A stretch of 64,000 nucleotides of DNA from positions 9,199 to 73,198 of the forward strand of contig DASPZU010000069.1 in assembly GCA_035636095.1 (NCBI GenBank). The letters run 5' to 3'. The position numbers and the translations under genes were made by a program. The notes under the pieces were generated by a model that saw nothing but the letters and a program-made list of their open reading frames with translations, was not told where the DNA came from and searched no databases. Shown here in pieces: positions 6,785 to 53,829 of the stretch (its first letter is position 1; every line of letters begins with the position of its first letter). This DNA comes from Thermoanaerobaculia bacterium (GTDB lineage: Bacteria; Acidobacteriota; Thermoanaerobaculia; Gp7-AA8).

Positions 6785-8406
6785 AGCGACTGGCGATCCT
6801 CGCGATTTTTCTCGCGGCGTGCGCGACGACGCAGCAGAGGAAGATGCTCGATCTCAAAATTACCAACGGCCGCATCCTCGACGGCACGGGAGCGCCCTGG
6901 TATCGCGGCGACATCGGCGTTCGCGGCGACGCCATCGTCGCGATCGGCGACCTTTCCTCGACCTCTGCCGCGACGACTCTCGACGCGCGCGAGAACATCG
7001 TTTCCCCCGGCTTCATCGACCTCCTCGGCCAATCGCAAATGTCGGTGCTGATGGATCCGCACCTGGAAGCGAAAGTGCGGCAGGGCGTGACGACCGAGGT
7101 CACCGGCGAGGGAACATCGCCCGGTCCGGCCATTGCGAATCGCGAAACGGGACAGGCGCCGCGTTTTCCGCGCTTCGCGGACTACCTCGAGGCGCTCGAG
7201 AAGAATGGCAGTGCCATCAACTTTGCGTTGTTCGTCGGCGCGTCGAATCCGCGCGAGATCGTGATCGGCAATATCAACCGCCCGCCCACTGCCGACGAAG
7301 TGCGCGAGATGGAGAAGATCATCGATCAGGCCATGCGGGAAGGCGCGATCGGCATCTCGACTTCGTTGATCTATCTGCCCGCCATGTTTTCGACGACCGA
7401 GGAAATCATCAACATGGCCAGGGTCGCTTCGAAGTACGGCGGCGTGTACTTCAGCCACATTCGCGACGAGGGAGAGAAGATCGACTCTGCGCTCGACGAG
7501 GCATTTCAAATCGGCCGCGAGACCCACATCCCCATCAATATCTGGCACATGAAAGTCAGCGGTCCCGCGAACTGGGGACGGATGCCGCACGTCATCGACC
7601 GCATCATCGCGGCGCGCGGCGAGGGGATCGACGTTGCCGCGAATGTCTATCCCTACATCGCATCGTCGACGTCACTCAGCACTCTGGCGCCCGACTGGGC
7701 GCTGGAAGGCGGCTACTCGGAATTCAAAAAACGTCTCGCCGATCCGGAACAACGCGCGAAGATCGCGGCGGCGTTGCGCGATGAGGTGGCGCGGCGACGC
7801 GAACGCGGGATCTACGTCGCGCGCATTCCCAATCCTGCGCTGGCGCAGTACGAGAAGAAATTCATCGAGCAGATCGCGAGCGAGATGGGCGTGACCACCG
7901 AAGAGGCGCTGATGCGGCTGTTCAGCGAAACGCCCATGTCGCCGAGCGTGATCTATTTCTCGATGAACGAGGATGACGTCCAGTACGCGCTGAAGCAGCC
8001 CTTCGTCTCGATCGGCTCCGATTCGGGGTCGCCCACGCCGCAGGCCCGCGCCACCCAGGCGGGAGTGCATCCTCGCGCCTACGGTACGTTTCCCCGCGTT
8101 CTCGGACGCTACGTGCGCGACGCAAAACTCTTCACGCTCGAAGAGGCTGTCCGCAAGATGACCTCACAAGCCGCCGATCGCGCACAGCTCAGCGACCGCG
8201 GCGTACTGCGTCCGGGCATGAAGGCGGATATCGTGGTCTTCGATCCCGAGAAAATTCGAGATGTCGCGACTTACGAGGACCCGCATCATTTCAGCGAAGG
8301 CGTGATCGACGTGATCGTGAATGGAGTGCCGGTGCTGCGGGACGGCGAAATGACTGCGGCGCTGCCGGGACGAGCATTGCGAGGACGAGGATGGGAGAAA
8401 AAATGA
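6781..8406 (+). CDS. N-acyl-D-amino-acid deacylase (D-aminoacylase) family amidohydrolase, lipoprotein
   Basis: Lipobox LAAC. DITNGRILDGTGAPWYRGDIGVRGDAIVAIGDL and SPGFIDLLGQS metal-dependent hydrolase motifs. ATGA overlap with lysA stop. Confidence 0.8.
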   Translation: MKRLAILAIFLAACATTQQRKMLDLKITNGRILDGTGAPWYRGDIGVRGDAIVAIGDLSSTSAATTLDARENIVSPGFIDLLGQSQMSVLMDPHLEAKVRQGVTTEVTGEGTSPGPAIANRETGQAPRFPRFADYLEALEKNGSAINFALFVGASNPREIVIGNINRPPTADEVREMEKIIDQAMREGAIGISTSLIYLPAMFSTTEEIINMARVASKYGGVYFSHIRDEGEKIDSALDEAFQIGRETHIPINIWHMKVSGPANWGRMPHVIDRIIAARGEGIDVAANVYPYIASSTSLSTLAPDWALEGGYSEFKKRLADPEQRAKIAAALRDEVARRRERGIYVARIPNPALAQYEKKFIEQIASEMGVTTEEALMRLFSETPMSPSVIYFSMNEDDVQYALKQPFVSIGSDSGSPTPQARATQAGVHPRAYGTFPRVLGRYVRDAKLFTLEEAVRKMTSQAADRAQLSDRGVLRPGMKADIVVFDPEKIRDVATYEDPHHFSEGVIDVIVNGVPVLRDGEMTAALPGRALRGRGWEKK

Positions 8407-8492
8407 ATTAAGAATTTCGAATTTCAAATGAAAAATTGAGAATGGGCTGATCTTTCATTTTTCATTCTTAATTTGAAATTTGAAATTTCATA
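8407..8492. repeat. heptamer-palindrome element family B copy 1 (AT-rich): (GAATTTC/AAATTTC)n - AAATGAAAAATTGAGA - centre GGGCTGATC - mirror
   Basis: Direct reading. Roughly 25% GC island in a 65% GC genome. Shares the GGGCTGATC centre with family A copy 1. Confidence 0.9.
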
Positions 8493-8498
8493 TTTCGC

Positions 8499-16911: not shown

Positions 16912-17933
<1,022 letters not shown>

Positions 17934-17937
<4 letters not shown>

Positions 17938-18032
17938 CCTCTCCCCGCTTCGCGGGGCGAGGGACCTCGAGATCGTCCGAGATCCTTCTCCCCGCCTGCG
18001 GGGAGAAGGTGCCGCGAAGCGGCGGATGAGGG
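17934..18032. repeat. GC-rich REP-like multi-hairpin element (family F copy 1): CCACCCTCTCCCCGCTTCGCGGGGCGAGGG ... CTTCTCCCCGCctgcGGGGAGAAG ... GCCGCgaaGCGGC
   Basis: Direct reading. First 30 nt identical to the copy inside leuS (52573-52662). Confidence 0.85.
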
Positions 18033-18037
18033 GCTCT

Positions 18038-20460: not shown

Positions 20461-20514
20461 CGTTGTCGGTTGTCGGTGTTCGGTTGTCGACAACTGACAA
20501 CCGACAACTGACAA
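20461..20514. repeat. heptamer-palindrome element family D: (GTTGTCG/G)x4 abutting (CAACTGA/CAACCGA)x4, centred on GTCGAC
   Basis: Direct reading. Loopless 54-bp palindrome between convergent genes. Confidence 0.85.
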
Positions 20515-20516
20515 CG

Positions 20517-22481: not shown

Positions 22482-23180
22482 CTAGTACTTGATCCGCTGC
22501 AGTTCCTGCTTCGCGGACGCGGCGGCAGTCGAGTAGGGATATTTGCGGATACATTCCTCGAACGTCTTCCGCGCCATTCCCAGGTCGCTGATTTTCTCGT
22601 AGGTAACGCCGAGTTTGAGCATCGCGTCGGGGGCTTTGTTCTCGGTCGCGAACTCTTTGGTGACCCGTTCGTAGAAACGCATCGCTTTGTTGTAGTCGCC
22701 GGCAGCAAAGTAGGTTTCGCCGATCCAGAAAAGGGCGTTGTCGGCGAGCTGGCCGGTCGGGTCGCCGTCGAGCACCTGCTGGAACATCGCGCGCGATTCG
22801 GCATGCTTTCCCTGGCTGAACAGCATCAGCGCGCGGCGGTAAGTTTCGGCGACGTCGGCGACGTGGAGCGCCGGCGACCTCGCCGGCGCGGTCGTGGAAG
22901 TCGCCGCCGGGGTCGGCGGCGCTCCACCTTCCAACTTCGAGATGCGGGCATTGAGGACGTCGAGGCGGTCGAGCAGCTCGGTGAGCGACGTCTGAAGGTC
23001 GACGAGCTGTTTGTCGACCGTAGGAGAGGAAGCCGGCTGGGGCGGCGGGACGAGTGACGGCTCATCCGCTGGCTGCTTGGAGGAAGCGCATGACAAAGTC
23101 AGAAGGCAGAAGGCAGAAGGCAGAAGGAAGCGGAGCGCGGCTCTTACTGCTGCCTTCTGCTTTCTGCCTTCTGCCTTCAT
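22482..23180 (-). CDS. ybgF: Tol-Pal system YbgF/CpoB-like lipoprotein (coiled coil + TPR). Signal peptide encoded by a palindromic repeat
   Basis: ATG at 23180 overlaps bamD TGA (ATGA coupling). N-terminus MKAEGRKQKAAVRAALRFLLPSAFCLLTLSC (lipobox LTLSC). C-terminal TPR with GETYFAAGDYNKAMRFYE. Confidence 0.7.
   Translation of the reverse strand: MKAEGRKQKAAVRAALRFLLPSAFCLLTLSCASSKQPADEPSLVPPPQPASSPTVDKQLVDLQTSLTELLDRLDVLNARISKLEGGAPPTPAATSTTAPARSPALHVADVAETYRRALMLFSQGKHAESRAMFQQVLDGDPTGQLADNALFWIGETYFAAGDYNKAMRFYERVTKEFATENKAPDAMLKLGVTYEKISDLGMARKTFEECIRKYPYSTAAASAKQELQRIKY
23099..23178. repeat. heptamer-palindrome element family C copy 1: (CAGAAGG)x4 - centre - (CCTTCTG)x4, located inside the 5' coding region of the ybgF-like gene
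   Basis: Direct reading. Confidence 0.9.
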
Positions 23181-23965
23181 GCCGTCTTCATCTGATCGAG
23201 CCACCGTTTCGCCCGGTCGGCGTAGTTGCTCTTGGGAAACTCCGAGATCACGCGCTCGAAGTAGAGTCGCGCTTCCGCTTTTCTACCCAGTCCCGCCAGC
23301 GCCGTGCCCATGTCGTAGAAAACGGCATCGCGCTCGCGATAGTTCGGATAGGTGTCGATGATGTAATTCAATCGCTGGATCGCCGAGGGGTAGCTGCGCC
23401 GCTTCATGTAAAAGCGCGCGATGATGTGCTCATGTTTCGCGAGACGATCCAGCGCGTCCTGCAGCCGCTTATCCGCTTCGGGACGCAAGGCGCTGTTCGG
23501 GAAGGTGTGGATCATGTCGTTGAACTTCTCGACCGCTTCGCGAGTTTTCTGCTGATCGCGGTCGGGCTTTTCCATCTGTTTGTACGCCACCATCGCGATC
23601 TGCAGCATGGCGTAATCGGCGCGGTCGCTTCCGGGATAGCGATTGATGAAGTCGCGGTATTTGTACTGCGCTTCGACGAGATTCACCGGATCGCCCTGCG
23701 CGTAGTACGTGTCGGCAACCCGCAGAAGAGCGCGGCGTCCCAGCGGATCGTTGGGATGGTTTTCGTAGATGTAGCTGTAGTAGGTCCGCGCTCGCGGGTA
23801 CCGCTTTTTCCCGAATTGCTCCTCGCCGCGGTCGAAAAGCTGCTCTTTGCTGAGCTTCGTCAGCTCAGGATCGACGGCCGGCCGGATCGGACGTGGTCCG
23901 CCGTGACGGCAGGCTGCGAGCGACAGCGCGATCGCTGCCAGGAGAACGATTCCAGTTCGTTTCAA
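23177..23965 (-). CDS. bamD: outer membrane protein assembly factor BamD (YfiO) lipoprotein
   Basis: Lipobox LAAC. TPR-like repeats typical of BamD. Confidence 0.8.
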   Translation of the reverse strand: MKRTGIVLLAAIALSLAACRHGGPRPIRPAVDPELTKLSKEQLFDRGEEQFGKKRYPRARTYYSYIYENHPNDPLGRRALLRVADTYYAQGDPVNLVEAQYKYRDFINRYPGSDRADYAMLQIAMVAYKQMEKPDRDQQKTREAVEKFNDMIHTFPNSALRPEADKRLQDALDRLAKHEHIIARFYMKRRSYPSAIQRLNYIIDTYPNYRERDAVFYDMGTALAGLGRKAEARLYFERVISEFPKSNYADRAKRWLDQMKTA

Positions 23966-27949: not shown

Positions 27950-28924
27950 ATGAGTGCACCGGCTTCGACGGTCGTGGTGTCCGATCCGACGCTCAAACGC
28001 GCCGATTTGCACTGTCATAGCCGCTTTTCGATCTTCAAGTATTTCCGGCGGGCCAACACCCGAGACTGCTACAACGCCCCGGAAGACGTCTACAGGATCG
28101 CAAAAGAGCGAGGAATGAGCTATGTCACCCTCACCGATCACGACTCGATTGATGGCGCGCTGTACCTGTTGAACAAGCATCCCGATCTAAAGGATTTCTT
28201 CATCGGTGAAGAAGTCGAAACCTACTTCCCCGAGACCGGGCAGCGCATCCACGTGGGGGTGTGGGGTCTCAGCGAAGCGCAGCACCGGGAGATTCAGCGA
28301 TTGCGGCCCAACATCCGGGAGCTCATCCCTTACATGAAGTCGGAGCGGCTGCTGTTCGGCGTCAATCACCTCTTCCAAAACTACCGGATGAAAAACGTGG
28401 CGGGCCGCTATATCGCGGAGCTGCTCGACATGTTCGACGTTTTCGAAGTGCTCAACGGTGCCATGGCGTCGTTCCACAATCGGATGGTGCAGCAGCTCAT
28501 CGACACGGTGCAGCGAGAGCATGGCCGTCGCATTTCGATGGTCGGCGGCTCCGATGCCCACACCCTCAAACACGTCGCGAAAGTGCACACCGTTTCGAAG
28601 GGCGACACCGTCCCCGAATTTCTTGCCAGCGTCCGCGCCGGCGATTGCTTCGGCTGGGGCGAAGAGATGCGCTTCCGCGACCTGGTTGCCGACATCTACA
28701 TTCTGTTCCTCGCCTATCACGGCGAAACCGGCGCCGATCTCCGGTCGCGCGACTACACGCCCGCCGACAAGATGATCCAGCTCGCGACGCGCCTGGCGTC
28801 GATTCCGACCGCGATCTCAGGTCTGCCCGCCGCGATCACGTCGCTGAACTACCTCAAGCAGATCGTGATCACAAAAGGCATCTCGATGCGCTTCGATCGC
28901 CTGCGCGAAGAAATCCGCCGCTAG
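27950..28924 (+). CDS. PHP-domain metal-dependent phosphoesterase
   Basis: ADLHCHSRFS...LTDHD motifs. Start at 27950 (MSAP) or upstream 27878. Confidence 0.7.
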   Translation: MSAPASTVVVSDPTLKRADLHCHSRFSIFKYFRRANTRDCYNAPEDVYRIAKERGMSYVTLTDHDSIDGALYLLNKHPDLKDFFIGEEVETYFPETGQRIHVGVWGLSEAQHREIQRLRPNIRELIPYMKSERLLFGVNHLFQNYRMKNVAGRYIAELLDMFDVFEVLNGAMASFHNRMVQQLIDTVQREHGRRISMVGGSDAHTLKHVAKVHTVSKGDTVPEFLASVRAGDCFGWGEEMRFRDLVADIYILFLAYHGETGADLRSRDYTPADKMIQLATRLASIPTAISGLPAAITSLNYLKQIVITKGISMRFDRLREEIRR

Positions 28925-29022
28925 TAGGTGCCGCGCCTACAGTTTTCAGTTTTTTCCACCTATGGGAGAGACGTTCTACGACCTGCAGAACAAGGCGAAA
29001 ACTGTAGGCGCGGCACCTACTA
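28921..29022. repeat. long hairpin with perfect 26-bp arms (CTAGTAGGTGCCGCGCCTACAGTTTT ... AAAACTGTAGGCGCGGCACCTACTAG); likely bidirectional terminator
   Basis: Direct reading. Each arm contains the TAG stop of one of the convergent genes. Confidence 0.8.
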
Positions 29023-30849
29023 GAAATTGACGGCCAGGCCGCCGATGTACTTCCGGGTCGTTCCGTCGGGATCGACGGTGTCGAGCAGGAAGGGCGAATT
29101 CGCGGCCCGCACGACTTCGACGCCCAGAAGCACTTTGAGGTCCAAGGGCAGATGGAGGTCTTGCGCGACCCGCACGTTCACGCGCTGCGACCGGTACTCG
29201 GCGTTGGCGTTGGGCCTCGGCTCATGGAGTTGTCGGTACGAGACGGCGAGGGTCGTGCCGGATGGATGGTAAGTCGACTCGACATCGCCGGTGACGTAGA
29301 CCTTCTCGGATCCGCCGATTGCCGGCGTCGCCGCTCCGGCACTCGATGACATGTCGATCAGGAGATACCGGCCCAGCTCCTTGCGATAAGTCAGGCGCAA
29401 GTCGCGGCGGATGTCGCCGGTGTCGACGTAGAAACCATCCCAGAACTGCTGGAAGCCATCGGTGAACACAACGCGCAGAGGCGAGTCTGCGGCGCTGACC
29501 GTGGCGATTGCGGAAACGTGATTGCGCGCGTCATCGCTGGAAACAAATCCGAACGAGTACGCGTACCGCGGCAGCACGCGCGATTCATCGGTCCACACCA
29601 CGATGCTCGGCATCATGTTCTGCCGCTGCTGGTCGTAGACCTTGTACATGCCGGTGACGATGAAGGAGGTGTCCTTCGACAACTTGAATTGCGCTCCTGT
29701 TCGTGGGGCCCACTCCGTACCGTAGAGTCCCAGCCGGCTGGACACTCCGTAGCGGAGAATGAACGACGGCACGATCTCGAGGTTCGCGTTGGCGGTGAGG
29801 TCCGCCGTCCGGAAAGTCGCGTTGGCGGTGTTGTGCAGACTCTCCTGCGTCACGCGCAGTGCGACGCCGACTTCGTTGCGCCGCGTCTGCATCACGGTGG
29901 TGTTGCCGGCGATCTCGATCAGATCCGATCCTGGATTGCCGACGAACAGATTCTGCTGCGCCAGGTACCGCACTTCGACGCGCGCGTCGCCGTGCTCCCA
30001 TTCCAGATTGTGCGCGCGGATGTCGGCCTCATGCTGCGGGCCCGGTTCGCCATCTCTGTAGCGCCACCAGCTCTTCATCGACCCGACCCGATACGCTTCG
30101 GTCGCCGAGGAGCGCAGCTCCATCTGCATGGCGCTCGATTGCGCGATCGCACCGCCGAACGGTGTGTCGTCGGTCGGATCGTCGATGCGATGGATGTTTC
30201 CTTTGAATCCGAGCTGCCACGAGTCGCCCAGTCTGCTCTGAACACCGACCGCAGTCTGTGCGAAGCTGGGAGTCGACTGATCGGCGACCCCGGTCATCGA
30301 AACCATCTCGCCCTTCAGGCGCGGGATCTGATAATCGGCGGCCGCGCCAACCGAGAGGGGCTGCGCCATGGCCATGTCGAGCTCGCGAAGGATGTCGGGC
30401 GGAAGCGAGCCGCGAAGCTCCCAGATTTCCTGATTGGTACTCCTGCTGGCGCGCTTTTCGTTCTCGAGACGAATTGCGAGCTTCACATCTTTTCGCGTCG
30501 GAACGATCATCGCGACGGTCGGCGCGAAACCCTGCTTCACCGCGATGACGCGATAGACCGCCGCCGGAAGTGCAGGAAGCGAGAAGGTGCCGTTGTTGGC
30601 GCTGAAGGTCTGCATCGCTTCGAGCGTGTTGAGATTGAGCGCGATCACAAGCACGTGCTCGACGGGCCGTGCCGCCGTCGTGACGATGCCGATGATGTTG
30701 AGGGCGGTCGGGAGCGGCAGGGAGTCAGGGCGAGCAGTGCCCGCCATAGCGAGCGTGGCGCAGATGACGGTGGTGAAGTTTCGGCGCAAAGCTCCCCTTT
30801 CTATCCGCTCGGGCGAGTCTACGGATTGCTCGCACGCGAAGTCAAACAC
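29020..30849 (-). CDS. outer-membrane beta-barrel protein with carboxypeptidase-regulatory-like N-domain
   Basis: Signal-like RRNFTTVICATLAMAGTA. Prealbumin-like segment. C-terminal ...GGLAVNF. Confidence 0.6.
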   Translation of the reverse strand: MFDFACEQSVDSPERIERGALRRNFTTVICATLAMAGTARPDSLPLPTALNIIGIVTTAARPVEHVLVIALNLNTLEAMQTFSANNGTFSLPALPAAVYRVIAVKQGFAPTVAMIVPTRKDVKLAIRLENEKRASRSTNQEIWELRGSLPPDILRELDMAMAQPLSVGAAADYQIPRLKGEMVSMTGVADQSTPSFAQTAVGVQSRLGDSWQLGFKGNIHRIDDPTDDTPFGGAIAQSSAMQMELRSSATEAYRVGSMKSWWRYRDGEPGPQHEADIRAHNLEWEHGDARVEVRYLAQQNLFVGNPGSDLIEIAGNTTVMQTRRNEVGVALRVTQESLHNTANATFRTADLTANANLEIVPSFILRYGVSSRLGLYGTEWAPRTGAQFKLSKDTSFIVTGMYKVYDQQRQNMMPSIVVWTDESRVLPRYAYSFGFVSSDDARNHVSAIATVSAADSPLRVVFTDGFQQFWDGFYVDTGDIRRDLRLTYRKELGRYLLIDMSSSAGAATPAIGGSEKVYVTGDVESTYHPSGTTLAVSYRQLHEPRPNANAEYRSQRVNVRVAQDLHLPLDLKVLLGVEVVRAANSPFLLDTVDPDGTTRKYIGGLAVNF

Positions 30850-30910
30850 ACGCCTGCAAATTATTGTCCGCTTCCAAATTTAGCGGTGAACAATGAGCAA
30901 ACTCAACTAC

Positions 30911-30988
30911 TTGAAGGCAGAAGGCAGAAAGCAGAAGTCAGAAGGGCTAACCGTTCTACTTCTGCCTTCCGCCTTCTGCCTGCTGCTT
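30911..30988. repeat. heptamer-palindrome element family C copy 2: (GAAGGCA)n - GGGCTAACCG - (TGCCTTC)n, intergenic 3' of pyk
   Basis: Direct reading. Confidence 0.85.
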
Positions 30989-30989
30989 T

Positions 30990-32420
30990 TCAGATGCGAA
31001 CCCTGTGAACTCTGAGGAGATTGGTCTTGGCGCGCTGGTAGATCGGGGATCCCATGAGGATCACCAGCGGGTCGCCCGGGGCGACGATGTCGCGGCTCAG
31101 GAGGAAATCGTCGACGCGCTCGACGATTTGCTCGTGGTACTCGCCTACCTCGCGAAGGACGAACGGCTGCACGCCCCACAAAATGTTCATGCGCCGCGCA
31201 ACCCAGCTCGACGGCGTCAGCGCGATGATGGGCTGCATCGGACGGAACTTGGACATCAGTCGCGCCGCGAAGCCTGTCTGCGTGAAGACGACGATGTACT
31301 TCGCATCGAGCTGCTCGGCGGCGTAATTGGCAGCGCCCGCCAGCGCGTCGGTGAATTCATCGGCTTCGGAGACCTTCCGGAACGGCTCGCGTCTGACGCG
31401 AGCGACCAGCTCGCGATTCTGTTCCGCGGCCATGATGATGCGGGCCATCATCTGCACGGCTTCGGTCGGATAATTTCCCGACGCCGTTTCTGCCGACAGC
31501 ATCACGGCATCGGATCCGTCGAAGATCGCATTGGCGACGTCGGACGCTTCCGCGCGCGTCGGCCGCGAGCTGACCGTCATCGACTCCAGCATCTGGGTGG
31601 CCGTGATCGCGAATTTTCCCCAGCGGCTGGCGCTGGCAAGAATTTTTTTCTGCACGATCGGCACGTCTTCCGGCGGCAGCTCCACGCCCAGGTCGCCGCG
31701 CGCGACCATGACGCCGTCGGAGACCTCGAAAATCTCCTCGAGCTGCTCGATGGCCTGCGCCTTTTCGAGCTTGGCGATGACGTTGATCTCATCGCCGCCC
31801 AGCGCACGCAACAGCGCGCGAAGCTCCTCGATATCCGAGCGTCGCCGAATGAATGACGCCGCGATGTAGTCGAGTTGATGCTCGACTACGAACTTCACAT
31901 CTTCGCGGTCCTTTTCGGTGATCGCCGGGATCTTCAGGTCGGTGTCGGGAAAATTCATCCCCTTCCGCGACGAGATCGGGCCGCCGTGCAGCACCCGCGT
32001 CGTCACTCTCTTTTCGTCGATCGCGGTGACGACCAGCTCCACCAGTCCGTCGTTGATGAGAATGCGATGGCCAAGCTGCACTTCCTGCGGCAGGTGCGTG
32101 AATGGAGTCGACATCATCGTGGCATTTCCCTGCACCGGCTCCGTCGTGATCACGAAGGTCATGCCGTTTTGCAGTTGCACGACCCCATCGACTTCGCCGA
32201 TGCGCAGCTTCGGTCCCTGGATGTCGCCGACGATCGGAATGTACTTGCCATGCTCCGTGGCGGAATGGCGAATGATTTCGATCAGACGCACCCGCTCCTG
32301 CGGAGTACCGTGCGAGAAATTGAGGCGGAAGACGTCGACGCCGGACGTTAAAAGACGCTGGATCGTTTCTTCAGTGCTACAGGCGGGACCGAGGGTGGCG
32401 ATGATTTTGGTTCTTCTCAA
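30990..32420 (-). CDS. pyk: pyruvate kinase
   Basis: MRRTKIIATLGPA..FRLNFSHG...MVARGDLGVE. Confidence 0.95.
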   Translation of the reverse strand: MRRTKIIATLGPACSTEETIQRLLTSGVDVFRLNFSHGTPQERVRLIEIIRHSATEHGKYIPIVGDIQGPKLRIGEVDGVVQLQNGMTFVITTEPVQGNATMMSTPFTHLPQEVQLGHRILINDGLVELVVTAIDEKRVTTRVLHGGPISSRKGMNFPDTDLKIPAITEKDREDVKFVVEHQLDYIAASFIRRRSDIEELRALLRALGGDEINVIAKLEKAQAIEQLEEIFEVSDGVMVARGDLGVELPPEDVPIVQKKILASASRWGKFAITATQMLESMTVSSRPTRAEASDVANAIFDGSDAVMLSAETASGNYPTEAVQMMARIIMAAEQNRELVARVRREPFRKVSEADEFTDALAGAANYAAEQLDAKYIVVFTQTGFAARLMSKFRPMQPIIALTPSSWVARRMNILWGVQPFVLREVGEYHEQIVERVDDFLLSRDIVAPGDPLVILMGSPIYQRAKTNLLRVHRVRI

Positions 32421-32434
32421 TTTTTTCGCAGTTT

Positions 32435-32528
32435 ATCCTGAGCGAAGCGAAGGATCTCCGGTGCAACAGCTGCGCAGTTAGCCGCAGCGGCAGCTGCTCC
32501 ACCGGAGATCCTTCGCTTCGCTCAGGAT
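32435..32528. repeat. long hairpin with perfect 29-bp arms (ATCCTGAGCGAAGCGAAGGATCTCCGGTG ... inverse) and a nested palindromic loop
   Basis: Direct reading. Lies between pyk start and DAHP-synthase stop, in the pyk 5' leader. Confidence 0.8.
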
Positions 32529-32532
32529 GAAG

Positions 32533-38453: not shown

Positions 38454-38530
38454 TCGGGAGGCAAATTCGTGAGCGTAAGGCTCACGATCATCGAAGTAAA
38501 ACAAGCTCAGCCGGACTTTCCCCCCTCAAA

Positions 38531-40299
<1,769 letters not shown>

Positions 40300-44402: not shown

Positions 44403-44448
44403 GGTCGGGGAAGCTCCTTCGAGGAAATCGACGAATCGTAGCATACGA

Positions 44449-44520
44449 GTGCTTAGTGCTGAGTCCTGAGTGCTGAGTCCCGCCCACTCAGGACTCAGGA
44501 CTCAGCACTCAGGACTCAGA
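44449..44520. repeat. heptamer-palindrome element family E copy 1: (CTGAGTC/CTGAGTG)x3 - CCGCCC - (ACTCAGG/ACTCAGC)x4
   Basis: Direct reading. Contains lptE TGA stop. Lies in the metK leader. Confidence 0.9.
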
Positions 44521-47217: not shown

Positions 47218-50200
47218 TTAGTTCGTCGGATGCTTCTGGATGTTTCCGTTGCTCAGCGTATGGCAGCCGGTATCCATCATCAGGGTGCAGGAAGTGGGCG
47301 CATTGGGATCCTGGTCGCTCGGGAGGCGCTGAATGCGGATCCTGTCCGAATTTGCTCCAGGCTCTGTGTTGTCTTCGACTGTAACCCTGTAGATGCAGCC
47401 CGTCTTCTTATCCCTCACCTTGAACGTGATGCAGTTGGTGCAGCTGGGGCAGTCGCCGTTATTGCCGCAAGGAGTTACCAGTCCGATGACTGGCCCATTG
47501 ATGTGGAACCCCGATGTGTGGTCGAGGCCGTTGAACTCGCCATCGGTGGGCCCGTTCGAGGGTGTCCTGAAGTTGAAACCGAAGCTCCACTTGTTGCCGT
47601 TGGTGGCGATGAATTGACCGCCGCCGGTGTACTTAACGGCCGTGGGGGTACCGGTGCAGATGCCGCCGCTACAGGTGTCGTTGCTGGTGCAGGCATCCCC
47701 GTCGTTGCACGGAGCGGTGTTGTTGTTGTGCACGCAGCCCGTCGCTGGGTTGCACGAGTCGTCGGTACAGACGTTGTTGTCGTTGCAGTTGGGCGGCGAC
47801 CCGCCCACGCACGAGCCGAGGGCGCAGGTGTCGTTGGTGGTACAGGCGTTCCCGTCGCTGCACGGGGCGGTGTTGTTGGTGTGCGCGCATCCCGTGGCCG
47901 GGTTGCACGAGTCGTCGGTGCAGACGTTGCCGTCATCGCAGTTGGGCGCAGGCCCGCCTATGCAGGTTCCACCACTACAGGTGTCATTGGTCGTACAGGC
48001 GTTGCCGTCGCTACAAGGATTGGTGTTGTTGGTGTGCACGCAGCCCGTGACCGGGTTACAACTGTCATCGGTGCAGACATTGTTGTCGTTGCAATTGGCA
48101 GCCGGCCCGCCGACGCATGCGCCCGCGGCGCAAGTGTCATTAGTCGTACAGGCGTTCCCGTCGTTGCAGGGGCCGGTGTTGTTGGTGTGCACGCAGCCTG
48201 TGGCCGGAACGCAGCTGTCGTCGGTGCAGACGTTGCCGTCATCGCAGTTGGGCGCCGGCCCGCCGACACAGGTTCCACCACTACATGCGTCATTGGTCGT
48301 ACAGGCGTTTCCGTCGCTACACGGGTTGGTGTTGTTGGTGTGCACGCAACCCGTCTGTGTGTTGCAGGTGTCGGTCGTACAGACGTTGCCGTCGTCGCAG
48401 TTGGGCGCCGGCCCGCCGACGCACGTTCCGTTGGCGCAGGTGTCGCTCGTGGTGCAGGCGTTCCCGTCATTGCACGGGTTGGTGTTGTTGATATGTGTAC
48501 ATCCGCTGGCCGGGTTGCAGGCGTCGGTCGTACAGACATTCCCGTCGTCGCAGTTAGGCGCAGGCCCGCCGACGCAGGTTCCACCACTACAGGTGTCATT
48601 GGTGGTACAGGCGTTCCCGTCGCTACAGGGATTGGTGTTATTGGTGTGCACGCAGCCCGTGGCCGGGTTACAACTGTCGTCGGTGCAGACATTGCCGTCG
48701 TCGCAGTTGGGCGCAGGCCCGCCTACGCACGCGCCACCCGCGCAGGTGTCATTGGTAGTACAAGCGTTCCCGTCGCTGCAGGGGTTGGTGTTGTTGACAT
48801 GCGTACACCCACTGGCGGGGTTGCAGCCGTCGGTCGTACAGACATTCCCGTCGTCGCAGTTAGGCGCAGGCCCGCCGACGCACGCTCCCGCGGCGCAAGT
48901 GTCGTTGGTCGTACAGGCGTTCCCGTCGTTGCAGGGGGCGGTGTTGTTAATGTGCACGCAGCCCGTGGCCGGGTTACACGAGTCGTCGGTGCAGACGTTA
49001 TTGTCATTGCAGTTGGGAGCTGGCCCGCCGACACACGTTCCACCCGCGCAGGTGTCGTTCGTGGTACAGGCGTTCCCGTCGTCGCAGGAGGCGGTGTTGT
49101 TGGTGTGCGTGCATCCGCTCGCCGGATCGCACGCATCGTCGGTACAGACGTTGTTGTCGTTGCAGTTAGGCGCTGGCCCGCCCACGCACGTCCCACCCGA
49201 ACACGTGTCATTGGTGGTGCAGGCGTTCCCGTCGCTACAGGAGGCGGTGTTGTTAGTGTGCACGCAGCCTGTGGCCGGATTACAGCTGTCGTCAGTGCAG
49301 ATGTTGCCGTCGTCGCAGTTGGGCGCAGGCCCTCCTACGCACGTGCCACCCGCACAGGTGTCATTGGTGGTACAGGCGTTCCCGTCGTTACAGGGGGCGG
49401 TGTTGTTGGTGTGCACGCAGCCTGTGGCGGGGTTACAGCTGTCGTCGGTGCAGACATTGTTGTCGTTGCAGTTAGGTGCAGGCCCTCCAACGCAGGCTCC
49501 ACCGCTACAGGTGTCATTGGTGGTACAGGCGTTCCCGTCGTTGCAGGGGGCGGTATTGTTGGTGTGGAAGCATCCGCTCGTCGGGTCGCAAGCATCATCG
49601 GTACAGACGTTGCCGTCGTCGCAGTTGAGTGGGGCGCCGGGGTTACAGGTCCCCCCACCGCACACCTCATGGCCATTGCACACCGTGTTGTCATCACATG
49701 AGGCGGTATTGTTGGTGTGTACGCACCCTGTCGCGGGATTGCAGCTGTCGTCAGTGCAGACGTTGTTGTCGTTGCAATTGACCGCGCTGCCCTCGCAGAA
49801 CCCCAGGGAGTTACAGGTGTCGTTGGTGGTGCAGGCGTTGCCGTCGTTGCAGGAAGTCCCAGTGGCCGGAGTGTGGCGACAGGCATGCAAAGTCGTATCG
49901 CATGTATCGGTGGTACACGGGTTGCCGTCGCTACACTGCGAGGCGTCGGTGCATCCCTGAAAAAGGATACAGTCCGAAGGGTCGGAGTTTGGTATCTCGG
50001 ACGGATAGGAGCACGCGTCAACCAACGTGGCGCTCGTGCCCGCCCCGAAGTCGGCAAGATCGACCGAGCAAGTGGCGACTGTGTCCGAGGGGTAGGCGTC
50101 ATCGGGTGGGAAGGGATCGGTGTTCTGCTGCGACACCGAGCACGTGGTGTTCTTGCCTGGCCCCGGCATACAGGCACCACCGCCGAGGCAGCCCGATTCG

Positions 50201-50772
50201 CTTGAGCAGGGGGCGCCGGCATTGGTCCCGCCGACACACATGTTCCCAGCGATCTGTACACTACCAGTACACCTGTCAGGCCTACTGTCGCTGCAGTTGA
50301 ACAGCCTCACTGCTCCCAGTGTGGCGAATTGGCCATGGTCCCTTATGGTCACGCAGACCGCGAGGTTGACATTGCCATTACCGTTGGTGTCATAGAGGGA
50401 GCAGGCATCGCCGGTGTTTCCGCCGGAGAGAGTTACGAGGTCCCAGTCCCACTGTGTAAAGACCTCGAACGGGCTAGTTCCGGGCTCCACACAGAATCGT
50501 GTCAGGTCCTTCTGACCAGGTACGTCGTTGGCCCCTTGCACGTCGTTTTGACAACTAACGAACACGGGCTGGGCAGCCGCCGGAGGTGCGGCCAGCGCAA
50601 TCAGCGAAATCAAAGTCGCTATGAGACAAAGAGACCGGAAGGTCAGCCCGAAGCTTCTATTACGGCTGCATCGGGTCAACCTTCCGGCGTTGCTTCTATA
50701 GCTGCTTTGAGGGGCGTTAAGTAGAGAGGCTGCGCACAGCCGCGTACAGCGGCAGGAATCTGGGTCTCGCAT
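47218..50772 (-). CDS. giant secreted cysteine-rich protein with about 17 tandem 46-aa Dictyostelium-CTDC-type repeats (CxDGNxCTxDxCxxxTGCxHTNNTxPCxDGNACTTNDTCxGGxCVGGPAPN)
   Basis: Translation is strongly periodic with about 190 Cys. Signal-like LCLIATLISLIALAAPPAAAQP. N-terminal start uncertain (first Met far upstream of signal peptide). Confidence 0.85.
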   Translation of the reverse strand: MRDPDSCRCTRLCAASLLNAPQSSYRSNAGRLTRCSRNRSFGLTFRSLCLIATLISLIALAAPPAAAQPVFVSCQNDVQGANDVPGQKDLTRFCVEPGTSPFEVFTQWDWDLVTLSGGNTGDACSLYDTNGNGNVNLAVCVTIRDHGQFATLGAVRLFNCSDSRPDRCTGSVQIAGNMCVGGTNAGAPCSSESGCLGGGACMPGPGKNTTCSVSQQNTDPFPPDDAYPSDTVATCSVDLADFGAGTSATLVDACSYPSEIPNSDPSDCILFQGCTDASQCSDGNPCTTDTCDTTLHACRHTPATGTSCNDGNACTTNDTCNSLGFCEGSAVNCNDNNVCTDDSCNPATGCVHTNNTASCDDNTVCNGHEVCGGGTCNPGAPLNCDDGNVCTDDACDPTSGCFHTNNTAPCNDGNACTTNDTCSGGACVGGPAPNCNDNNVCTDDSCNPATGCVHTNNTAPCNDGNACTTNDTCAGGTCVGGPAPNCDDGNICTDDSCNPATGCVHTNNTASCSDGNACTTNDTCSGGTCVGGPAPNCNDNNVCTDDACDPASGCTHTNNTASCDDGNACTTNDTCAGGTCVGGPAPNCNDNNVCTDDSCNPATGCVHINNTAPCNDGNACTTNDTCAAGACVGGPAPNCDDGNVCTTDGCNPASGCTHVNNTNPCSDGNACTTNDTCAGGACVGGPAPNCDDGNVCTDDSCNPATGCVHTNNTNPCSDGNACTTNDTCSGGTCVGGPAPNCDDGNVCTTDACNPASGCTHINNTNPCNDGNACTTSDTCANGTCVGGPAPNCDDGNVCTTDTCNTQTGCVHTNNTNPCSDGNACTTNDACSGGTCVGGPAPNCDDGNVCTDDSCVPATGCVHTNNTGPCNDGNACTTNDTCAAGACVGGPAANCNDNNVCTDDSCNPVTGCVHTNNTNPCSDGNACTTNDTCSGGTCIGGPAPNCDDGNVCTDDSCNPATGCAHTNNTAPCSDGNACTTNDTCALGSCVGGSPPNCNDNNVCTDDSCNPATGCVHNNNTAPCNDGDACTSNDTCSGGICTGTPTAVKYTGGGQFIATNGNKWSFGFNFRTPSNGPTDGEFNGLDHTSGFHINGPVIGLVTPCGNNGDCPSCTNCITFKVRDKKTGCIYRVTVEDNTEPGANSDRIRIQRLPSDQDPNAPTSCTLMMDTGCHTLSNGNIQKHPTN

Positions 50773-51147: not shown

Positions 51148-53739
51148 TCAGCGAACGACAACGTTTACCAATTTTCCTGGTACATAGACCGTTCTTACAA
51201 CTTGCTTCCCGCTCACCCATTGTTGAATCTTGTCGTTGCTCTGCACTGCAGCCAGGATCTGCTCCTCGACCGGAGGATTCGGCACCTCGACGTGCCCGCG
51301 CAGCTTTCCGTTGACCTGCACCACGATCGTGATGATGTCCTCCTGCATCAGCTTCGGATCGGCGACCGGCCACTTCGACTGCAGGACGAAGCGCTTGTTG
51401 CCGAGCATCTCCCACAACTCTTCGGTGATATGCGGCGCGAACGGATGCAGCAGCTGCAGTAGAACGGTGTAGCTTTCGCGCACGTTGGCGCCGGCGGCCA
51501 GCGCCTCGCCGATCGCGTTGGAGAGCTCCATCAGCGCCGAGATGGCGGTGTTGAACTCGAAACGCTCGATGCGCTGCGTCACGGCGGCGATGGTCTGGTG
51601 GATTTTGCGGATGAGTGCCGCCGAGGCCGGCGGCGCTCCACCGGCGGCTGCACTGTCGGCCATGTTCCACACGCGGCTGAGGAAGCGATACGCGCCGATG
51701 ACGCCCTCGTCCGACCAGGCCGCTTCCTTCTCGGGCGGGGCGATGAACAGCGTGTACACGCGTTCGGTGTCGGCGCCGTAACGTTCGATCAGCGCGTCGG
51801 GCGGCACGACATTGAACCGCGACTTCGACATCTTCCCCACCTCGGGAATCAACTCGACGCCGTTGCGAAAGGGTTTTTTGTCGCGAAACTCGACCTCATC
51901 CAGCGGAACCCAGCTCAGACCGCATGACGGATCGCGAAAACCTTCCTTCGTGATCATGCCCTGGTTGAAGAGCCGCGCGAATGGCTCTTCGAAGCTGACC
52001 AGGCCCATGTCATACAGCGTGCGGCAGATGAACCGCGAGTACAGCAGATGCAGGATGGCGTGCTCGATGCCGCCGATGTATTGATCGACGGGCAGCCAGC
52101 GATTGGCCATCTTCGTATCAAAGATTCTTGTTTCGTCGCGCGGCGAGATGAATCGCAGGTAGTACCACGACGAGTCGACGAATGTGTCCATCGTGTCGGT
52201 CTCGCGGCGAGCCTGGCCTCCGCAGGTCGGACAGGTCGCGTTGACGAACTTGGGATCCTTGGCGAGCGGATTTCCCTCTTTGCCCGTGAACTGGACGTCC
52301 ACCGGCAGCACGACCGGCAAGTCCCTTTCTTGTACCAGAACAATTCCGCATTTGTCGCAGTACAAAACCGGAATCGGCGTTCCCCAATATCGCTGGCGCG
52401 AAATCAGCCAGTCGCGCAGCCGATAGCGCACCATCTTTTTGCCGATTTTGCGACGCTCGATCTCCGCGATGATTTTCTCGATCGCCTTCGGCGTGGGAAG
52501 GTCGGTGATGATGCCGGAGTTGACCGAGATACCGTTTTCTTTGTCGACGTAAGCCCCCTCACCCGGCACTTCGTGCCACCCTCTCCCCGCTTCGCGGGGC
52601 GAGGGCCCTCCCGCCGAACTCCCTCGCCCCGCTTGCGGGGAGAGGGACGGGGTGAGGGGTGCCACCACCATCCGGACCGGCAGCCCGTACTGTTTCGCGA
52701 ACTCGAAGTCGCGTTCATCGTGTCCCGGCACGGCCATGATCGCGCCGGTGCCGTACTGCATCAGCACGAAGTTGCCGAGCCAGATCGGGATCTTTTCTTC
52801 CGTGAAGGGATTGATGGCGTACTTGCCGGTGAAGCGGCCTTCCTTCCCCGCCTCCTGGCGCTCGAGCGCGCTCTGATTGCGCACGCCCGCGATCCAGCGC
52901 TCGAGCGCGGTCCGGTCCGGACTGTCCGCGATGAGCGCAGCAACGTCGGGATGCTCCGGCGCGAGCACCATGAAGGTCGCGCCGTAGATCGTGTCGGGGC
53001 GCGTTGTGAAGACGCGAATCGGATGACCGAGGTCGGGTATGGGGAAGTCGACGTCGGCGCCGAGGGACCGGCCGATCCAGTTGCGCTGCATGACTTTGAC
53101 CTGCTCGGGCCAGTGCTCCAGCGCGTCGAGGCCGTCGTCGAGGCGATCGGCGTAGGCCGTGATCTTGAGGAACCATTGCTCCAGCTCGCGCTGCACGACT
53201 TCCGTACCGCAGCGTTCGCATCGGCCGTCGATCACCTGCTCGTTCGCGAGCACGGTCTGATCGCTGGGGCACCAGTTGACCGGAGCCTTGCCGCGGTACG
53301 CCAGGCCGCGTTTATAGAGCTGGATGAAGAGCCACTGGTTCCACTTGTAGTAGCCGGGATGGCATGAGGCGATCTCTTTGGACCAGTCGTAGAGGATCCC
53401 CCATCGCTGGAACTGTTTTTTCTCGCGCGCGATGTTCGAGAGCGTCCACTCGCGTGGATGGACGCCGCGATTGATGGCCGCGTTTTCGGCCGGCAATCCG
53501 AAAGCGTCCCAGCCCATCGGATTGAGGGCCGCGCGGCCGCGCATCATCAGATATCGATAGAGCGCATCGCCGAGGATGTAGTTGCGTCCGTGCCCGACGT
53601 GCAGATCGCCCGACGGGTACGGAAACATGTTGAGCATGTAGTACTTCTGGCCGGGCTTCGAGACATCGATCTCGGCCACGCGGGCATCGGCCCATGCGCG
53701 CTGCCATTTCTCTTCGATTGCTTTTGGGTCGTACGGCAT
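51148..53739 (-). CDS. leuS: leucyl-tRNA synthetase (contains in-frame REP-like insertion)
   Basis: HVGHGRNY...KMSKS and editing domain. ORF track start 53799 is translated repeat, so start taken at [13 protein letters not shown]. Confidence 0.95.
52573..52662. repeat. GC-rich REP-like element (family F copy 2) inserted in-frame in leuS, encoding roughly [29 protein letters not shown]
   Basis: First 30 nt CCACCCTCTCCCCGCTTCGCGGGGCGAGGG identical to intergenic copy at 17934. Second hairpin CCCCGCTTGCGGGG. Confidence 0.8.
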
Positions 53740-53755: not shown

Positions 53756-53829
53756 AAGTCCTGAGTCCTGAGTGCTGAGTCCTGAGCACGCCCACCCACT
53801 CAGGACTCAGGACACAGGACTCAGGACTC
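53756..53829. repeat. heptamer-palindrome element family E copy 2: (TCCTGAG)x4 - CACGCCCACCC - (ACTCAGG)x4
   Basis: Direct reading. Contains dtd TGA stop. Lies in the leuS leader. Confidence 0.9.

Follow-up and report, generated by a model that had tools for sequence, protein, structure and literature searches.

How did a leucyl-tRNA synthetase gene come to carry a GC-rich palindrome that is read straight through as protein, and what is that palindrome? The gene, leuS, is located on the minus strand of a stretch of 64,000 nucleotides (nt) from a Thermoanaerobaculia bacterium of the Acidobacteriota (contig DASPZU010000069.1, assembly GCA_035636095.1), which was analysed as a whole and is referred to as the window. 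An initial annotation had described a GC-rich, REP-like element inserted in frame and without a frameshift in leuS, and the palindrome is indeed translated straight through on the minus strand. We report that it is very probably a dispersed BoxC/PIT/TM element of 105 nt that has been inserted in frame into leuS and is tolerated as a loop of the synthetase (LeuRS). Specifically, two units, each comprising a CCCTCNCCCCGC/GCGGGGNGAGGG hairpin and a G-rich third block, GGTGAGGGG, would have been inserted head to head; the translated segment may be a disordered excrescence that leaves aminoacylation and editing undisturbed, and it would persist as near-neutral selfish DNA.

Empty and filled sites in related leuS genes

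The window LeuRS was compared with its 120 best homologues, which belong to the Acidobacteriota and, by their source names, to the class Thermoanaerobaculia. In the following, Q denotes the window leuS, while L127 and L002 denote the DNA of the proteins P0122 and P0004, respectively. The distance from HDxRDxEF to YRLRDW is 74 amino acids (aa) in many of the homologues, 80-85 in others and 105 in the window LeuRS. P0002 (91% identical outside the loop) is the closest relative with an empty site; its loop reads VVEGGDLPFVDKENG, a state also present in the outgroups P0010, P0012 and P0007, and the net gain of the window LeuRS over this empty-site relative is 31 residues. Two further homologues, P0122 (90.5% identical) and P0004 (82.5% identical and from another clade), have a 63-nt form at the same site, in which one perfect hairpin is placed between the same end blocks and mini-hairpin; the sole difference between the window element and that of P0122 is 42 extra nt. 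Moreover, the edges of the window element coincide exactly with the points where the tract identical to L127 stops. As read from the alignment, these loop states show that the 105-nt element is an insertion in leuS and not an ancestral loop. An alignment of LeuRS orthologues for presence or absence of the insert had been proposed in the initial annotation, and this alignment returned both empty (P0002) and 63-nt (P0122 and P0004) states.

The loop of P0032 reads TLSPPGGERG. In P0124, a fragment from SRR5213593, the upstream leuS codons are followed by the element in another frame, and the LeuRS frame is regained at AFVDKETG; the cause is either a frameshift from assembly of the hairpin or a variant that is out of frame.

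The mechanical open reading frame (ORF) of leuS reaches a GTG at 53799, and the start of P0001, the identical database protein, is the ATG at 53739. The LeuRS of Thermus thermophilus (1H3N) matches the window protein over its full length (E = 2.7e-250), the Pfam families tRNA-synt_1, tRNA-synt_1_2 and Anticodon_1 are present, and the HVGH, KMSKS, TTRPDT and HDERDFEF motifs are readable in the translation, with catalytic and editing motifs intact. By these features the product is assigned as a bacterial LeuRS of class Ia with a CP1 editing domain. Q and L127 share 72% identity at third codon positions (a difference of 28%) and 86.6% over all positions; the divergence at third positions thus exceeds the overall divergence, which indicates that the window leuS is under purifying selection and not a pseudogene. 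Three contigs (one from ENA and two from JGI), each from another sample, agree at 100% identity over the leuS DNA, including the insert, and P0001 is carried by five contigs on record. Since the insert-bearing gene is base-identical in three contigs from different samples, an assembly error is excluded.

Anatomy of the element

The coordinates of the element and its parts are given in Table 1. On the coding strand the order is CCCCTCACCCC, GT, CCCTCTCCCCGC-AA-GCGGGGCGAGGG, AGTTCGGCGGGAGGG, CCCTCGCCCCGC-GAA-GCGGGGAGAGGG, TGGCAC-GAA-GTGCCG and GGTGAGGGG. The ends form a 9-bp terminal inverted repeat, where CCCCTCACC at 52555-52563 pairs with GGTGAGGGG at 52651-52659. Each hairpin has one T/G mismatch, yet pairing is perfect between the arms of one hairpin and those of the other. 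The second CCCCGC/GCGGGG hairpin of the initial annotation is present as the core CCCCGC-TT-GCGGGG at 52627-52640. A direct repeat, CCCCGCT on the plus strand and AGCGGGG on the coding strand, is located at 52585-52591 and 52627-52633.

The composition is approximately 80% G+C, and the predicted RNA fold of the region has a free energy of -80.5 kcal/mol (z = -5.1). Four of the six frames lack a stop codon, and therefore leuS stays open and the element is translated, without frameshift, as a segment of 35 residues rich in Pro, Gly, Ser and Arg that starts with PLTPS and ends with PGEG. The insert of about 30 residues first placed at 52573-52662 is thus real and its edges have to be moved: the left edge lies 18 nt further out, as 52573 leaves out the mini-hairpin and the terminal block, and the segment has 35 residues. 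A scan for promoters and terminators gave no promoter-like or terminator-like site on the element.

Table 1. Coordinates of leuS, its element and the intergenic sister copy (copy B) in the window
Feature	Position	Strand	Remarks
leuS (leucine-tRNA ligase)	51148..53739	-	863 aa from ATG; 100% identical to database protein P0001
Whole in-frame element	52555..52659	-	105 nt, 35 codons; two triplex-motif units head to head
Terminal block CCCCTCACC (GGTGAGGGG on coding strand)	52555..52563		third-strand block of right-hand unit
Mini-hairpin linker CGGCAC-TTC-GTGCCA	52564..52578		15 nt
Hairpin 1, CCCTCTCCCCGC-TTC-GCGGGGCGAGGG	52579..52605		one T/C mismatch; within the 30-mer common to 17934-17963
Spacer between hairpins	52606..52620		15 nt; also in L230 with one change
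Hairpin 2, CCCTCGCCCCGC-TT-GCGGGGAGAGGG	52621..52646		arms also pair perfectly with hairpin 1 arms
Third-strand block GGGGTGAGGGG	52649..52659		tied to hairpin 2 by 2-nt linker AC
Segment missing from P0122 and P0004	52585..52633		42 nt, 14 codons; bounded by 7-nt direct repeat CCCCGCT
Copy B	17917..18033		between CorC/CBS-type gene (stop 18038) and era (start ~17913)
Copy B, left end			degenerate
Copy B, hairpin	17937..17963
Copy B, spacer
Copy B, hairpin CCTTCTCCCCGC-CT-GCGGGGAGAAGG	17984..18009
Copy B, mini-hairpin	18010..18024
Copy B, block GATGAGGGG	18025..18033

Family identity of the element

The Escherichia coli TMECO motif, CCCTCGCCCCTTTGGGGAGAGGGTTAGGGTGAGGGG, was earlier named the BoxC or PIT element (Holder et al. 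2015, PMC4666352), and BoxC/PIT/TM is a G/C-rich class II intrastrand-triplex motif with earlier work by Bachellier, Hoyne and Maher (cited in PMC4666352). In vitro TMECO folds into an intrastrand triplex, and local genome instability has been linked to it; no associated transposase was found in E. coli, where its copies are reported to be always intergenic (PMC4666352). Head-to-head pairs of TMECO partly collapse in E. coli strains, which has been termed a "palindromic effect" (Holder et al., PMC4666352).

A unit was defined by three blocks: a pyrimidine block, a complementary purine block that forms the hairpin with it, and a third, G-rich block that is mirror-symmetric to the purine block. 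In leuS the plus strand reads CCCTCGCCCCGC-TT-GCGGGGAGAGGG-AC-GGGGTGAGGGG, and the other unit is on the coding strand. The blocks CCCTCGCCCC, GGGGAGAGGG and GGGTGAGGGG equal the TMECO/BoxC blocks (Table 1 in PMC4666352), and the GGGGTGAGGGG unit matches the TMECO layout of a hairpin, 2-3 nt and then GGGTGAGGGG; the right-hand terminal block, CCCCTCACC/GGTGAGGGG, was compared with the same published block. The likeness hence comprises the blocks CCCTC(G/T)CCCC, GGGGAGAGGG and GGGTGAGGGG, the succession of hairpin, short linker and third block, the position of the T/G 'mm' mismatch in the stem, head-to-head 'palindromic' pairs that partly collapse in relatives, and the multi-copy, highly conserved occurrence across phyla. 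The leuS element differs in that its stem is lengthened by GC to 12 bp and in that a 15-nt mini-hairpin takes the place of one of the 2-3 nt linkers. In-frame translation, seen for this copy and for many others of the survey, is a further difference from the E. coli copies, which are reported to be intergenic. Loops in ITxF are 1-6 nt; the leuS hairpin loops are 2-3 nt and the linkers 2 nt and 15 nt, the latter being a hairpin of its own, and in the pooled sample linker lengths cluster at 2-3 and 11-14 nt. We thus class the leuS insert, by its blocks and their layout, as two BoxC/PIT/TM units head to head, one with the canonical 2-nt linker and one with a 15-nt hairpin linker.

The term 'REP-like' turned out to be too loose, given that neither a GTAG nor a CGTC tag is present and the blocks are those of BoxC/PIT/TM. 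Identity with the GTAG/CGTC REPs was rejected for want of the tag, the element ends being CCCCTCACC and GGTGAGGGG. Permissive Rfam scans of both window copies yielded noise only (miRNA and antizyme families; E >=0.06, far below the gathering scores).

To survey the family, one genome per species was scanned with the pattern CCCTCTCCCCGC-N2-3-GCGGGGNGAGGG. This core was found in at least 119 genome stretches, and among the matches listed were Alpha-, Beta- and Gammaproteobacteria, Verrucomicrobiota, Planctomycetota, Myxococcota, Acidobacteriota and Dormibacterota; nearly always the copies had CCCCTCACCCC 2-3 bases to the left or GGGGTGAGGGG 2-3 bases to the right. A metagenome scan with the lineage-specific right half, GGGGAGAGGG-TGGCNCGAAGNGCCN-GGTGAGGGG, gave at least 119 stretches, mostly from soil, with 124 copies. 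Together with the two copies in 64 kb of the window, these matches make the element a dispersed one. In 245 units the hairpin and the third block covary (C:G*G in 193, T:A*A in 47 and discordant in 5), although subfamily linkage would look alike; hence the covariation could be what a triplex would require, or it could stem from linkage within two subfamilies, which gives an equal pattern.

The sister copy and the question of coincidence

The 30-nt sequence that the initial annotation had found to be shared with an intergenic element at 17934, CCACCCTCTCCCCGCTTCGCGGGGCGAGGG, is exact and occurs at only two sites in the window, 17934 and 52576. For its 27-mer core, two matches at <=3 mismatches were obtained, compared to none in 100 shuffles. 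Copy B has the commonest double architecture of the metagenome sample, and within the 64-kb window the leuS copy is the only intragenic one.

That the resemblance is a coincidence or an assembly artefact, and the insert an ordinary lineage-specific extension of LeuRS, has a practically negligible probability. G/C-rich 10-mers are common in a GC-rich genome, and the single blocks GGGTGAGGGG or GGGGAGAGGG at one mismatch are not enriched over shuffles in this window, so that only the composite is informative. The composite, on the other hand, includes an exact 30-mer with zero expected, a match of 101/105 in another gene (L230), identical sequence in independent assemblies, and empty sites in relatives. 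The empty sites and the exact 30-mer also contradict the possibility, named in advance as refuting, that the similarity to 17934 is coincidental.

In-frame copies in other genes

Only ORFs with Pfam domains on both sides of the insert, or spanning it, were counted as hosts; the many stop-to-stop read-through ORFs around copies in GC-rich contigs were regarded as spurious and left uncounted. An MFS transporter gene in L230 contains an in-frame copy with 4 differences in 105 nt relative to the leuS insert, and this copy codes for nearly the same peptide. The metagenome hosts further include UvrA, LigA, RecQ, an M61 peptidase, an adenylation domain of a non-ribosomal peptide synthetase (NRPS) and two Ser/Thr kinases (activation loop), while the genome scan gave the lipoyl-FAD linker of LpdA, a class II ribonucleotide reductase, Mfd and an FAD oxidase. 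Besides leuS there are, in total, 12 Pfam-verified host genes. At least 8 of the 124 metagenome copies are in frame in such genes, which is a lower bound because many of the contigs are short. A repeat of this kind in an essential synthetase had been called uncommon; these counts, together with the intragenic palindromes already documented (PMC3733652, PMC10969869), speak against that.

The survey also gave some individual cases. A single gene for LigA, the NAD-dependent DNA ligase (L165, metagenome contig Ga0155441_107), appears to have three in-frame repeat-derived segments, including PLTRPAPREERDTLSPKGARGNKEE, and the Pfam ligase domains around them are intact. In a Betaproteobacteria metagenome-assembled genome (L004, JBKDUF010000056.1, ~1808-1833) two adjacent MmgE/PrpD-like coding regions are joined in one 970-codon frame via a double TM element, uninterrupted by a stop codon, and this joined frame could represent a repeat-mediated gene fusion or a lost stop codon. 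Finally, two different NRPS genes (L217 and L219) carry a double TM element in frame at one common position, directly ahead of the AYxIYTSGSTG core motif; this position in the adenylation domain is a possible second hotspot.

The LeuRS loop as a recurrent site

The insert is positioned in the CP1 editing domain, right after the HDxRDxEF aspartate motif, and aligns opposite a short loop in 1H3N (residues ~363-379, after HDQRDYEF); the alignment with E. coli LeuRS breaks at the same point. In the AlphaFold2 (AF2) model residues 364-399 have a predicted local distance difference test (pLDDT) score <50 and no secondary structure, and are located between two short strands. The site is a surface-variable loop of the CP1 editing domain, which relatives have empty, with the shorter form or with other repeats. 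The variable loop tolerant of the insert that the initial annotation had suggested is supported by this position and by the many relatives with an empty site.

At least five repeat types occur at the same few codons among the relatives. TM-type repeats are present in the window leuS, P0122 and P0004, and GTAG-type REP dimers in P0100 (GTAGGACGGGC), P0022 (GTAGGACCGGC plus tandem copies) and P0003 (GTTGTAGGACCGCCGCC twice). The loop of P0119 has a CCCTCTCCCGC double hairpin with CCCTCACCC/GGGTGAGGG ends, and that of P0006 has (CGACAAC)x4, read as DNRQPTTDN, of which peptide or decayed versions are seen in several other homologues.

The loop would thus be a recurrent site of landing or retention because insertions there survive selection, and the resident non-B DNA may promote more rearrangement. 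Most simply, the hotspot reflects a selection filter, where insertions survive only in a tolerant loop. Whether the loop is instead targeted, through a preference for sequence or structure or by insertion into a resident palindrome, was considered and appears doubtful. The number of repeat types at the same few codons would fit targeting, as would the left junction VVA|P, which is common to the window leuS and P0004 though they belong to different clades, and the empty loop GAGGGAGGC, which resembles the end of the element. However, the insertion points of the repeat families are several codons apart, and these families also occupy many loops and linkers elsewhere, in other genes, as predicted by a selection filter.

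History and conservation of the leuS element

A neighbour-joining tree initially gave (P0002,(Q,P0122)). Bootstrapping recovered the trio Q/P0122/P0002 in 184 of 200 replicates and, within it, Q+P0122 in 83 and Q+P0002 in 99; the trio is accordingly read from these data as an unresolved trifurcation. With no bootstrap support for its internal order, precise dating was dropped, and the insertion, described earlier as datable by comparison with relatives, is so as a bracket and not precisely.

The variable stem positions of the mini-hairpin are G..C in 107 of the 124 metagenome copies, C..G in 13 and T..A in one, besides two unpaired combinations, while an A..T variant is confined to the window leuS and L127 and absent from all 124 others. 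The junctions of the window leuS and P0122 are identical. Because they share both junctions and the rare variant, these two most likely descend from one insertion event. P0004 falls outside the trio and has a different right junction, and its insertion is therefore most simply taken as independent.

The 63-nt form in relatives would most likely have arisen from the 105-nt form by a slipped-strand deletion between the 7-nt AGCGGGG repeats, through which two mismatched hairpins would collapse into one perfect hairpin. We favour this direction as the probable one since a complete double form exists elsewhere and direct repeats bracket the 42 nt, and it agrees with the "palindromic effect" in E. 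coli strains (Holder et al.). The reverse, an origin of the 105-nt form at this site from the 63-nt one, through insertion of a second hairpin into the loop of the first or through inverted duplication, seems rather unlikely. It would agree with the presence of the single form in two lineages (P0122 and P0004) and of the double form in one, and single forms flanked by both third blocks do exist elsewhere (L027, L063 and L101). Opposed to this, L230 has the complete double form, with the same 15-nt spacer, at an unrelated locus; where the 'extra' part meets the 'shared' part, the sequence is the standard unit also found in copy B; and a difference of exactly 42 nt bracketed by 7-nt direct repeats is a signature of slippage deletion.

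Several observations do not fit easily with a simple, near-neutral insertion, or they limit how firmly it can be argued. The leuS junctions show no target-site duplication, nor is the insertion clean: relative to the empty-site relative, the ancestral EGGDLP is replaced by A...A (an 18-nt replacement), so that a second event or an imprecise mechanism is needed. No mobilising function turned up for the leuS element, with no search aimed at transposases having been made. The direction of change between the double and the single form is one that we infer. The position of the insert relative to the editing site and the tRNA path has been mapped by sequence only, and with an AF2 model of low overall quality (mean pLDDT 69), 'disordered' is weak evidence. 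Moreover, Q and L127 have 0/63 mismatches in the element compared to 13.4% in the rest of leuS (binomial P = 1e-4), and only 1% of the 63-nt windows of leuS are as conserved. Pure neutrality does not predict such conservation at the DNA level; its source could be palindrome self-correction, gene conversion from other copies or structural selection. With respect to P0004 (L002), the window element has 5 differences in 63 nt compared to 20% in the flanks, and two of the five are a compensatory pair in the mini-hairpin.

These data bear on whether the insert is kept for a function, either as mRNA or DNA structure (a translational pause between CP1 sub-domains, or a supercoil or triplex) or as a new LeuRS surface, which we consider improbable. 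In its favour are the lack of mismatches to L127, the compensatory pair relative to L002, and the rare A..T variant common to the window leuS and L127, i.e. one event with no change since. Against it, the proteins that carry copies of the element are unrelated and read it in different frames and from either strand, and close relatives are empty or have unrelated repeats at this site; furthermore, the region is predicted as coil, neither an Rfam family nor a terminator-like site was found, and a sequence lacking any function could still be kept intact by palindrome self-correction or by gene conversion from other copies. A dispersed element tolerated as a loop is thus the reading that we retain.

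Other repeats in the window

A second class of palindromes in the window is intergenic and consists of a tandem heptamer array followed by its inverted complement (595-666, 2398-2469, 8406-8496, 20461-20516, 23087-23188, 30900-30998, 38511-38631, 44447-44519 and 53757-53829). The heptamers differ, e.g. (GGGATGA)n, (AAATTTC)n, (GACAACC)n, (GAAGGCA)n and (CTGAGTC)n, while the architecture is the same. One array is located between dtd and the leuS start, and in relatives the leuS loop contains the (CGACAAC)n type in frame. Heptamer direct repeats have been reported in Beggiatoaceae, Xanthomonas and Nostoc; on inverted heptamer arrays nothing was found in the literature.

Long intergenic palindromes are present at 32432-32531 and 28921-29023, one with 42-nt arms of 93% complementarity and containing ATCCTGAGCGAAGCGAAGGATCTC, the other with 36-nt arms, and no long ORF reads through either of them. 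Finally, positions 47218-50772 on the minus strand encode a Cys-rich protein of 1184 aa with 14 tandem 153-nt (51-aa) repeats, CNDGNACTTNDTC, and with Pfam Dicty_CTDC on record. In L129 and L130, two further assemblies of this locus, the gene is called differently, which points either to collapsed repeats or to genuine variation in copy number.

Related systems and implications

In Rickettsia, palindromic elements (RPEs) are found in frame in genes for functional proteins (Ogata et al. 2000, reviewed in PMC10969869). As for the RPEs, the family described here is palindromic, in frame in genes for functional and often essential proteins (leuS and the Pfam-verified hosts above), and adds a peptide at surface positions. 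It differs in organism and sequence (~80% G+C as opposed to the AT-rich, Rickettsia-specific RPEs), in size (63-105 nt as opposed to ~100-150) and in using several frames instead of coding for one conserved peptide; considering the G+C content and the Acidobacteriota host, homology to RPE-1 to RPE-10 is unlikely. Intragenic GTAG/CGTC REPs are short palindromes, often arranged as head-to-head dimers, that contribute 20-30 residues to the products of known genes (Di Nocera et al. 2013, PMC3733652). Their hosts are often DNA replication and repair genes (uvrA, recB), and different REPs occupy roughly the same recB site in related species (PMC3733652). Repair-type hosts are found here too (UvrA, LigA, RecQ and Mfd), but the leuS element lacks the GTAG/CGTC tag, whereas true GTAG-type dimers are present in the same loop of P0100, P0022 and P0003. 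With the intragenic ERIC/RU repeats of enterobacteria (Delihas 2007, PMC2759123) and with MITEs in general it has in common that these are small, non-autonomous repeats with terminal inverted repeats (9 bp in the leuS element) and open frames that fuse with host ORFs; unlike them it is much shorter, shows no visible target-site duplication and has no known parent insertion sequence. By analogy, the leuS element probably works like the RPEs and the intragenic REPs, as selfish or structure-prone palindromes that survive where they encode a harmless loop (PMC10969869, PMC3733652, PMC2759123). Palindromes in frame are already known from the Rickettsia RPEs and the GTAG/CGTC REPs; in the literature no report was found of repeats in LeuRS or of BoxC/TM elements inside genes.

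Our knowledge of LeuRS function is left unchanged by the finding; more interesting are the hotspot, with its repeated occupation, and the element's unusual conservation. The loop of the LeuRS editing domain is a permissive site for engineering, where 0 to ~50 extra residues are tolerated. For annotation, odd Pro/Gly/Arg-rich loops in conserved proteins, such as LSPQAGRG and PSPRKRGEG, become recognisable as repeat-derived. The leuS loop provides a natural series at one codon position (empty, 63-nt, 105-nt and other repeat families), which fixes the ends of the element to the base and gives one route of change, the probable 42-nt slippage deletion. BoxC/PIT/TM elements, hitherto treated as intergenic, are translated inside essential genes of soil Acidobacteriota and other phyla. 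It is a speculative and, in our opinion, unlikely extension that BoxC/TM elements are pan-bacterial, actively maintained and routine colonisers of coding sequence, among them essential genes for translation and DNA repair, with their three-block architecture preserved even there, and that the CP1 loop is a targeted hotspot. If such routine colonisation is true, however, the in-frame copies would give precise empty and filled sites for working out the mechanism by which the family propagates or is homogenised.

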